Below, in pieces: positions 12,085-13,463 of a DNA stretch of 48,200 bases. The notes beneath the pieces were generated by a model that was given only the letters and a program-made list of their open reading frames with translations, was not told where the DNA came from and did not search any database. Made by a program: the position numbers and the translations under genes. This stretch comes from a virus. Taxonomy: Duplodnaviria > Heunggongvirae > Uroviricota > Caudoviricetes. Each line of letters begins with the position of its first letter. Within the stretch, counting starts at the first letter, position 1. The stretch is from the IMG/VR virus record IMGVR_UViG_2563366870_000003, one strand, 5' to 3'.

Positions 12085-12112
12085 GCAAAGAAAACCCGGC
12101 GCTGAGGCCGGG
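12085..12112 (-). terminator. Intrinsic terminator ending the cI / two-gene cassette operon
   Basis: Hairpin CCCGGC-GCTGAG-GCCGGG (12095-12112); minus-strand RNA follows with UUUUCUUU; sits just past the stop of the 12118-12870 ORF and upstream of pL. Confidence 0.5.
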
Positions 12113-12117
12113 TTGTA

Positions 12118-12870
12118 TTATGCTGCAAGTCTCTTAACCCAAGTCTCTCTTTTGGAGAATGGTAGAACTTGGCTTGATTCATGGAAGAGTAAGGAGAGTT
12201 GTTGCATTTGATCACCAATTGCTTCGCTGTCTATAACAACAAATCTGTTGTTATACTCCTCACTTGAAGCTTTAAGATCAATTAGTTTCCCAAGCAATGA
12301 GTAAGCACTATTCCAGCTTCCTCCGTGTTTCACGCTTGATGTAAAAACGTATTTAGGTATGTCGGTTTTTATTGTTACAGGGACGGTAATTTGATGTCCA
12401 CTCAAGCCATATACGTTTTCACGAAGAGAAAGTGCGTCTCTAAGCTCTGTGTGATATAGATAATCAATAACCATACTTTCAAACTTTTCAGCTTGAACTG
12501 GCTGATACCAGTCTAACGACAAAGTTGATGCGAGTATACCAGCTCTAATTATGTTCGATGTAATCGCACCGACATCCTTTTCTGTTGCCCAAGCAATGAT
12601 TTCTCCTCGAGCATTGAGTTCTGCGCCTTCTTTAAGCAGTAATTGTCGTATCTCATCAAGTCGTTTTTTGGTAAGCGAGATCCCTCTTGCCTCCATATTC
12701 ATTAAGGCATCGCATCTGTCACTAACTAAATACCTACCATTGACTTCACGGATAAAGGCACCGACATGCTCTCCATCATCACAGTAAGTGAATGGACTGA
12801 TAATTCTCAAGGTCTTGCCTATTGGATGGCATTCGAAACCTAGTTGTGAGATCACTGTTGAGCACATCAT
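12118..12870 (-). CDS. Unknown protein B of the rex-locus cassette, 250 aa
   Basis: ORF track 250 aa; ATG at 12868-12870 overlaps stop of the upstream ORF (ATGA). No motif I recognise; lower GC than flanking backbone. Confidence 0.6.
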   Translation of the reverse strand: MMCSTVISQLGFECHPIGKTLRIISPFTYCDDGEHVGAFIREVNGRYLVSDRCDALMNMEARGISLTKKRLDEIRQLLLKEGAELNARGEIIAWATEKDVGAITSNIIRAGILASTLSLDWYQPVQAEKFESMVIDYLYHTELRDALSLRENVYGLSGHQITVPVTIKTDIPKYVFTSSVKHGGSWNSAYSLLGKLIDLKASSEEYNNRFVVIDSEAIGDQMQQLSLLFHESSQVLPFSKRETWVKRLAA

Positions 12871-13424
12871 ATTCCAAACCCCATTTGCCCCGACTCATCT
12901 TCAAGCGGTAAAGGTATTCTCCCAGAGTAAGTTATGTTCAGATGTTTACAGAAGTAATTCCAATACCCTACCAGGTCATCTGGGTTTATGTCATCTTCGA
13001 TTGGAAACGCTATTCTATCACTATAGTATCCAGCTTCTTCATAGTATACATGGTAGTGAGCACCGTAAATGATATCTTGGTACTTCGGATGATCGACCTT
13101 GTAACTATTCGTGTGTTTGTCAAAGTGATAGGTATCTACCGCGAAAACCCTCTTGTTATGATAGAAAGCAATAATATTTATTTTAGGGTAAGAAATCGGG
13201 TCATCAGGTTCTGAATCCTGATCTGGTTTCCATTTCAGTTCAAACTTTAGCCCTTGTATAGGTATACAATCCTCATCCAAGGGGATGATATGGGCTTGTA
13301 GCCACATATCAGAGCGACTTGGTTTCTGTTTCCATTTAACGCCAGAAAAGTTAACTATTTTTTTACAATAAAGTACTTTATCAACTTCTACTTGGCTTGG
13401 CTGATAATCATCTATTTTTGCCAA
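12867..13424 (-). CDS. Unknown protein A of the rex-locus cassette, 185 aa (TTG start)
   Basis: ORF track 185 aa; first codon TTG at 13422-13424, 40 nt past the cI stop; Tyr/His/Asp-rich, no TM segment, no motif I recognise. Confidence 0.5.
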   Translation of the reverse strand: MAKIDDYQPSQVEVDKVLYCKKIVNFSGVKWKQKPSRSDMWLQAHIIPLDEDCIPIQGLKFELKWKPDQDSEPDDPISYPKINIIAFYHNKRVFAVDTYHFDKHTNSYKVDHPKYQDIIYGAHYHVYYEEAGYYSDRIAFPIEDDINPDDLVGYWNYFCKHLNITYSGRIPLPLEDESGQMGFGI

Positions 13425-13463
13425 TGTTTACCGCCCTGTAAATTGTAGATAAAAGTGGTTTCA

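Follow-up and report, generated by a model that had tools for sequence, protein, structure and literature searches.

In a 48,200-nucleotide stretch of a virus of the Caudoviricetes (IMG/VR record IMGVR_UViG_2563366870_000003; hereafter, the window), two minus-strand genes, here called A and B, lie directly downstream of the prophage repressor gene cI. Gene A (12867..13424, minus strand) encodes a soluble, beta-rich protein of 185 aa from a TTG start (RefSeq WP_001062368.1), and gene B (12118..12870, minus strand) encodes a soluble protein of 250 aa that begins at ATG and ends in -LAA (RefSeq WP_000968518.1; both accessions were established via the locus of Escherichia coli Nissle 1917). We find that the pair is a widespread and conserved defence candidate, for which sequence features suggest a mechanism, and a portable cargo cassette, or 'moron', that prefers the position just after a repressor. 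On balance, and with modest confidence, we favour the reading that A-B is a defence module of some kind; the fuller proposal, in which A would be the effector and B its sensor and neutralizer, is tentative.

The case for a conserved unit comes from its recurrence. An earlier note on this DNA had asked whether the pair recurs as a unit, and our survey of related loci (numbered below with the prefix L) indicates that it does, behind many repressors: A stands directly upstream of B, with a stop/start overlap at the conserved B start, in 89 of the 89 B-bearing loci analysed, and the same overlap is also found in Pseudomonas and metagenome loci. The identical 1.38-kb cassette is carried by phages ev017, ev207, PhiR57_1 and PhiR63_2 and by one Stx1a-converting phage, and it is present in 250 of 5426 complete E. 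coli genomes (~4.6%), chromosomal every time, including Nissle 1917, CFT073, S88 and the type strain. Homologues of both proteins extend to Salmonella, Klebsiella, Yersinia, Serratia, Photorhabdus, Providencia, Pectobacterium, Aeromonas and Thorsellia. Grouped at 70% identity, the genes that precede A in the same orientation form 32 clusters, mostly S24-plus-HTH (helix-turn-helix) repressors with some short CI-type HTH proteins, and at least 25 different repressor alleles precede A-B in the prophages of Enterobacterales and Aeromonas. Two of the 32 clusters are intervening non-repressor genes (a DUF3024 gene and a membrane open reading frame, ORF), with the repressor farther upstream. The DUF3024 gene occupies this position in one lineage and the hydrophobic ORF, of 114 aa, does so in Thorsellia; the loci with an extra gene before A are L044-L047 and L049 (about 3400-4440) and L007/L008 (5010-5354). 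In locus L088 the cI is the same as in the window but the AB pair is merely 51% identical, from which it follows that repressor and cassette assort independently.

The arrangement is also kept in a Pseudomonas/Azotobacter clade, where the order is Cro, S24 repressor, an A of 170-174 aa and a B with a 4-bp overlap, and the D3-like Pseudomonas phage VB_PaD_phPA-G carries the pair in this layout. The A-family ORF of phPA-G is unannotated (L090 3486-4004, corresponding to PP083311.1 14515-15033) and shares 4 bp with the beginning of the B homologue, which is annotated; in GenBank the 670-bp stretch in which it lies has no gene. At one Pseudomonas locus, L100, a staphylococcal-nuclease-like (SNase) gene follows immediately after B.

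In one metagenomic lineage A-B stands alone in a chromosomal context outside any prophage. In a different lambdoid prophage, that of E. coli EC02 (L095 4536-5408), a single P63C-domain gene fills the slot between cI and N, and its last 34 bp, which contain the terminator, are the same as those of the A-B cassette; these 34 bp common to the two cassettes suggest that the terminator may serve as a shared recombination junction for cargo exchange. In E. coli FDAARGOS_1255 (L096 2324-3704) a deletion mediated by the insertion sequence (IS) ISEc52 has removed B and N together with most of A and part of sieB, and in Nissle 1917 (L009 2462-3631) ISEc52 lies between a truncated integrase and sieB, beside icd. 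Copies of ISEc52 are located at the margins of this prophage type, and its members are decaying around the immunity region. Taken together, the recurrence, the independent assortment, the stand-alone case, the slot swap with the P63C gene and the IS deletion mark the pair as a portable cassette.

The cassette is distinguished by its base composition as well. G+C content is 38.2% in A, 40.6% in B and 39.6% over both genes, compared with 46.3% in cI, 49.9% in N and 41.2% in sieB, placing A+B at the 0.6th percentile of equal-size segments over the 48.2-kb stretch (mean 50.9%). The earlier note had described DNA poorer in G+C than its flanks, which holds, although its figure of 32-40% was somewhat too low, as 300-bp segments across A-B range from 37.7 to 43.7%, and the neighbouring sieB is low in G+C too. 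Compared with their orthologues, A and B have nonsynonymous divergence (dN) of 0.11-0.64 with saturated synonymous sites; because of this saturation, the ratio of nonsynonymous to synonymous rates (omega) was computable for a sole comparison, in which it was 0.077. This dN alongside saturated synonymous sites identifies A and B as real genes under purifying selection.

That the pair is a defence candidate is already public in two computational resources and is not a new idea. In a scan of PADLOC-DB at E <= 1, A and B match PDC-M24A and PDC-M24B alone, in the correct gene order. The match of B to PDC-M24B (E 4.7e-10) places residues 2-249 on profile positions 4-254 of 256, and 24 of 25 B-family members match this profile (best 9.5e-16), while A matches PDC-M24A (E 4.8e-4) over residues 104-163 only, its conserved HxH core, with a weak match in 8 of 21 A-family members. 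The adjacency and co-orientation that PDC-M24 requires are present in A-B at all loci of the survey (89/89). Both exact proteins also appear in DefensePredictor (PMC13092281, Table S5), where they belong to a single transcription unit of an ECOR strain and each carry the label "Predicted novel defense gene", at log-odds of 5.6 for B and 4.9 for A against a strict cut-off of 4, and 45% of the DefensePredictor predictions that were put to test were validated.

Protein B can be assigned to families and folds. It exceeds the Pfam gathering threshold for DUF1828 (PF08861; 33.5 bits versus 22, residues 26-110), a family matched by 25 of 25 B-family members. The AlphaFold model of B (predicted local distance difference test score, pLDDT, 83.6) has two domains: an N-terminal DUF1828 domain (~10-118) with a fold like those of YbjN, DUF2170 and type III secretion chaperones, and a C-terminal DUF1829 domain (~129-249) with a restriction-endonuclease (PD-(D/E)xK) fold, in which the alpha-beta-beta-beta-alpha-beta core is present. 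This model agrees with the domain split found by HHpred in DefensePredictor Table S5 (PMC13092281), namely DUF1828 at residues 25-114 (99.5%) and DUF1829 at residues 155-241 (98.8%, Pfam clan PDDEXK). In an alignment reaching down to 21% identity, D51, G89, E90, F130, G155, S157, G158, H159, W186, G194 and D198 are invariant, and K195 and R209 are nearly so; the motif G-x-S-G-H of the C-terminal domain (155-159) is thus invariant throughout. The canonical PD-(D/E)xK acids are missing from this domain in both the family alignment and the model, as H159 stands at the start of beta-2 instead of Asp, and in the family alignment beta-3 shows no conserved (D/E)xK, with K173 lost in the Pseudomonas clade. 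A relocated or alternative nuclease site using H159, K195 and D198 may exist.

The C-terminus of B is a second conserved feature. Full-length family members end in -AA in 106 of 121 cases and in -LAA in 71 of 121, compared with 63 and 2, respectively, among 532 other distinct ORFs of the loci (at least 150 aa and outside the B family), and these 63 -AA ends are spread over several unrelated families. The ssrA-type recognition signal of ClpX is reportedly a C-terminal LAA, a description attributed to Flynn et al. 2003. Within the window, an unusually high proportion of the real genes end in Ala-Ala, namely Bet (8334-9119), an Ea10-like gene (9846-10214), a 66-aa early ORF (10397-10597), B itself (12118-12870), Cro (14235-14450), an IS transposase (15080-15970), a NinB-like gene (18172-18630) and a gene for a 533-aa late protein (29333-30934). 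Such frequent -AA ends could be caused by protease targeting or by stop-codon context.

Protein A offers a conserved core but little homology. Across its family N106, H123 and H125 are invariant, and D97, H104 and R92 nearly so. Its C-terminal tail (the last ~15 residues) has AlphaFold pLDDT of 37-56, yet a P-x-P...SGQ...L pattern is conserved there, and its start codon is GTG or TTG in 30 of 32 distinct orthologue sequences, with B starting at ATG. A scores 22 bits against Pfam DUF6978 (PF22398), under the gathering threshold of 29.6, with only the C-terminal half of the model aligned, and distant relatives of A score 19.5-22.9 bits; the relationship is probably remote, and by the Pfam criterion A is not a member. 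The fold of A had no match in the fold libraries searched. Two candidate assignments were discarded. A cupin reading, based on an H-x-H-x3-E motif, was dropped as no cupin appeared among the fold matches and E129 is not conserved family-wide, and a match of the A profile to designed SAKe beta-propellers in the PDB (E 2.7e-10) is a repeat artefact, in which one 28-residue match is summed over six identical repeats, none of which passes alone.

For both proteins, sequence searches of the PDB with family profiles returned nothing significant, a scan of NCBIfam gave no match, and PHROGs returned only families 2017 and 1960, both of unknown function. Transmembrane segments are absent from A and B, whose highest Kyte-Doolittle means over 19 residues are 0.45 and 1.19, respectively (SieB, 3.03), and the AlphaFold2 models of both are globular and soluble. 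The profile and structure searches that the earlier note had proposed thus assign folds to the domains of B and leave A without a fold match, so its statement that neither protein was recognizable stands for A, with its weak DUF6978 similarity, and fails for B. Where it had seen no nuclease signature by eye, the DUF1829 domain, a member of the PD-(D/E)xK clan, brings in a nuclease-superfamily fold. It had also called the pair a candidate anti-phage module of a type it could not name; PADLOC and DefensePredictor bear out the candidate, while the DUF1828 and DUF1829 domains of B supply part of the missing name.

The position of the pair within the window is that of the RexAB exclusion system in lambda. 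On the minus strand, the ORF list and Pfam place cI (14159->13464), a 39-nt gap, A (13424->12867) and B (12870->12118) in succession, exactly the two coupled ORFs that the earlier note had read here. The A/B junction on the minus strand is ...GGAATATGATGTGC..., in which the TGA of A overlaps the ATG of B as ATGA (12867..12870, minus strand), an arrangement for translational coupling that is read from the sequence. The first gene of the presumed operon (13464..14159, minus strand) encodes a cI-type repressor with HTH_3 and Peptidase_S24 domains, as identified with Pfam and as annotated in the Nissle and phage records. The unit is closed by an intrinsic terminator (12093..12114, minus strand), where the terminator scan finds a GC-rich hairpin of 8 bp with a T-run behind it (12114-12093) with a fold energy of -17 kcal/mol and a z of -3.4 versus shuffles; the pair has its own terminator, as had been claimed. 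A consensus scan found no terminator-like site between cI and A.

To the left of the slot lie the gene for an N-type antiterminator (11409..11681, minus strand), with which the leftward early operon begins and which is annotated in phage PhiR57_1, where this region is identical, and then sieB, as annotated in the Nissle and phage records. Operator-like sequences between the terminator and N (11869..11909, oL region, the left edge of the immunity region) share inverted repeats I1 and I9 with an operator-like sequence in the cI/cro intergenic region (14189..14209, oR region), where the pRM and pR promoters are presumed to be located. Because these repeats match, A-B can be placed inside the immunity region, between cI and oL/pL, and the rexA/rexB slot named by the earlier note is borne out by gene order as well. 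The interval between cI and N is a mosaic hotspot that houses the abortive-infection systems RexAB and BstA (PMC8585504).

A promoter scan showed no enrichment (5 matches versus 7.1 expected), and one match, at 13442-13414, was rejected as an internal promoter because it overlaps the start codon of A. An Rfam scan of 11300-14700 found no RNA family. On the other side of cro, an IS3-family element of 1.31 kb (14703-16013; orfA 14757-15083, orfB 15080-15970, with 26-bp terminal inverted repeats at 14702-14727 and 15988-16013) splits the prophage cII, which starts at 14592 and continues at ~16017; identity to the intact Nissle 1917 locus is lost at ~14703 and regained at 16017. With this element inside cII the prophage is cII-defective, and the cI-A-B unit is intact.

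From these features we propose the following tentative mechanism, a defence module built much like a toxin-antitoxin pair. A-B would be transcribed with cI in the lysogen, an expectation drawn from the anatomy of the locus that the recurrence behind many prophage repressors fits, and would protect the lysogen from other phages through exclusion or abortive infection. This protective role is suggested by the slot, by assortment with many repressors, by the stand-alone case, by low G+C content and by the two defence predictors. Since plaque-forming phages carry the cassette, the pair tolerates its own phage. Chaperone-like domains such as the N-terminal domain of B bind extended peptides, and a tail that is disordered yet conserved, as in A, is the pattern expected of a partner-docking peptide; A and B may therefore form a complex in which the tail of A docks on the N-terminal domain of B. 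The invariant His/Asn/Asp cluster of A, set against a B fold that lacks its acids, suggests that A is the effector, with its D/H/N/H-x-H cluster as a putative active or metal-binding site. B would act as sensor and neutralizer, and given the loss of the canonical acids its endonuclease-fold domain may bind nucleic acid without cleaving it. The near-universal, ssrA-like -LAA, if recognized as a ClpX signal, would keep B short-lived, so that infection that halts the synthesis of B, or titrates B, would free A. The GTG or TTG start of A, paired with the ATG of B, would hold the level of A at or below that of B.

A more specific version seems rather unlikely as a whole: that this is a new defence mechanism in which A is an effector with a new, DUF6978-like enzyme fold and an invariant H-x-H/N/D site, B restrains it and the turnover of B by ClpXP is the timer, and the pair is the factor behind the phage resistance of Nissle 1917. 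With such a timer, phage-induced shut-off would be converted to abortive infection via the loss of B. Nissle 1917 is fully resistant to lambda and Stx phages, which was attributed to its prophage 3, and a cloned Nissle 'phage repressor (pr)' gene cuts the plating of lambda and Stx phages ~200-fold (Bury et al. 2018, PMC5987069). This gene is ruled out as an earlier test of A-B, as the primers of that study amplify the cII homologue of this prophage type and not A, B or cI; the positions concerned are 14546-14564 in the window and 7461-7832 in the Nissle locus L009, with A-B ~1 kb off. The same authors suspected more protective genes in that prophage (PMC5987069).

Several points weigh against the proposed mechanism or against the defence reading as such. 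We infer complex formation, the instability of B and the toxicity of A from sequence features. A resembles PDC-M24A and DUF6978 only weakly and in part, and the chemistry of A, the candidate effector, is not assignable from its sequence. As -AA is frequent in neighbouring early phage proteins (63/532, as above), part of the C-terminal signal of B may have another cause, and the C-terminal residues of B fall in a confidently predicted helix of the AlphaFold model and may therefore be harder to reach as a degron. PDC-M24 is itself only a candidate family, and the accessions, locus tags and contig of the pair are all missing from the DefensePredictor tables of tested and validated units (94 tested). 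No experimental phenotype for the pair was found in the searchable literature, Brenes and Laub 2025, who are said to have isolated the PhiR phages and screened prophage defences, being outside its reach. That literature likewise holds no functional reports on DUF1828, DUF6978 or PDC-M24: the preprint of Payne et al. concerns HEC systems and does not include PDC-M24, and Vassallo 2022 names ECOR13 as a host strain only.

Among the alternatives, the most serious retains defence and reverses the roles. B would then be a non-canonical nuclease effector acting through H159, K195 and D198, perhaps resembling Vsr or, as an RNase that needs no metal, EndA; its chaperone-like N-terminal domain would sense a phage protein, and A would be an adaptor, specificity or regulatory subunit. 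We consider this unlikely, though graded above the alternatives that follow. The fold of B and the three conserved residues speak for it, but H159 replaces the canonical Asp at the start of beta-2, beta-3 has no conserved (D/E)xK, and K173 varies in the Pseudomonas clade. Furthermore, the DUF1829 protein of the validated system DS-6/HipAD is the partner and not the toxin, and the invariant His/Asn/Asp cluster of A is hard to square with a mere adaptor.

Alternatively, the pair may serve the prophage life cycle, in the lysis-lysogeny decision or induction, or confer a host trait by lysogenic conversion. Co-expression with cI would suit the maintenance of lysogeny or conversion, proteins of the chaperone-like YbjN family are tied to stress phenotypes (PMC5398634), and the defence status of the pair is predicted only. 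The recurrence data bear directly on this possibility, as the pair assorts independently of both the cI allele and the phage type (lambdoid phages, P22-like Cro partners and the D3-like Pseudomonas phage), which argues against a function bound to a single regulatory circuit. Its occurrence outside prophages, its high scores with two defence predictors, and the low G+C content and cassette behaviour that mark it as accessory cargo also speak against this role, and we regard a life-cycle role as distinctly unlikely.

The two small overlapping genes, taken as co-transcribed, also invite comparison with toxin-antitoxin addiction modules, which would stabilize the prophage or kill cured cells with no direct anti-phage role. 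A candidate protease degron on B and a conserved weak start codon on A would fit such a module, as would a portable unit that is found outside prophages too and is kept in defective prophages (that of Nissle 1917 and the cII-disrupted prophage of this window). By the usual marks of type II toxin-antitoxin systems, small adjacent genes with coupled translation are present, and a known toxin or antitoxin fold or DNA-binding domain was not found: Pfam, PADLOC and NCBIfam scans gave A and B no similarity to known toxin or antitoxin families and no DNA-binding antitoxin domain. The strict site behind a repressor, in the slot of an exclusion system, is more typical of lysogen-expressed defence, and many toxin-antitoxin modules serve defence anyway, such that this alternative overlaps the favoured one. 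As a pure addiction module the pair seems quite improbable. Counter-defence against host immunity (anti-restriction or anti-defence) is highly improbable: anti-defence genes do occur in phage early regions, with ral and gam nearby, and a protein with a nuclease fold or chaperone-like features might tie up a host defence factor, but such genes are normally expressed early in the lytic cycle from pL or pR, A-B lies behind cI and is shielded from pL by oL and its orientation, and DefensePredictor and PADLOC indicate defence, not anti-defence.

If the defence reading were validated, it would add a widespread system, present in ~4.6% of complete E. coli genomes (among them the probiotic Nissle 1917, the uropathogen CFT073, S88 and the type strain, with a Stx1a phage as a further carrier) and in prophages of Salmonella, Klebsiella, Yersinia, Aeromonas and Pseudomonas. 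It would also provide a function for three families without one (DUF1828, DUF1829 and the DUF6978-like fold) and would strengthen the idea that phages of various types generally use the position after the repressor gene for immunity expressed in the lysogen. Lysogens with the pair may exclude other temperate phages, which bears on phage therapy and on the spread of Stx phages. A specialist would be unsurprised by another cargo pair in the rex slot; this one is cheap to test, occurs in medically relevant strains and offers experimental handles in its active-site candidates, -LAA tail, weak start codon and docking tail. So far as the searchable literature shows, several points appear to be new: the systematic association with repressors in different genera, the folds assigned to both domains of B and the absence of the catalytic motif there, the conserved use of a non-ATG start in A, the -LAA end of B and the conserved disordered tail of A.

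Comparison with known systems places the pair further. Like lambda RexAB, A-B occupies the slot between cI and oL/pL as two genes co-oriented with cI, with a terminator before pL and with the cI promoters presumed shared. The two pairs show no homology, as RexA and RexB were not matched in PADLOC at E <= 1 and no Rex family was matched in Pfam, NCBIfam or PHROGs; RexB is a polytopic membrane ion channel (PMC8585504), whereas A and B lack a hydrophobic segment and their folds differ. BstA, of prophage BTP1 and its relatives, likewise lies directly after the repressor in diverse Gram-negative prophages, and it is expressed in lysogeny and acts by abortive infection that spares its own phage (PMC8585504). 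In contrast to A-B, BstA is one protein with an aba DNA element for self-immunity, and a search with hidden Markov models shows no homology between it and A or B. A-B thus resembles RexAB and BstA by position and operon logic and belongs to neither family.

By domain content, B can be compared with several groups. DS-6/HipAD, a validated two-gene E. coli system (PMC13092281), has a second protein that joins DUF1829 to another N-terminal domain, with a partner enzyme encoded upstream; there the upstream partner is a HipA-family kinase and the N-terminal domain is DUF3037, whereas here the partner is DUF6978-like and the N-terminal domain is DUF1828. Relative to PD-(D/E)xK nucleases (the Can2/Card1 domain, NgoMIV/PspGI-type and Vsr-like enzymes), B lacks the catalytic D...(D/E)xK at the expected positions, conserves S157, H159, K195, D198 and R209 instead, and has no CARF and no DNA-recognition domain. 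B also differs from YbjN, DUF2170 and class I type III secretion chaperones, as its chaperone-like domain is fused to an endonuclease-fold domain and is encoded in a prophage immunity region with no secretion context. With PDC-M24, B agrees end to end through PDC-M24B, and A is weakly similar to PDC-M24A over its HxH core, with gene order and adjacency in agreement. A-B differs as a divergent, gammaproteobacterial and prophage-borne branch in which the match of A is weak and partial, and this PADLOC candidate family is the most fitting place for the pair, as a divergent member carried by prophages.

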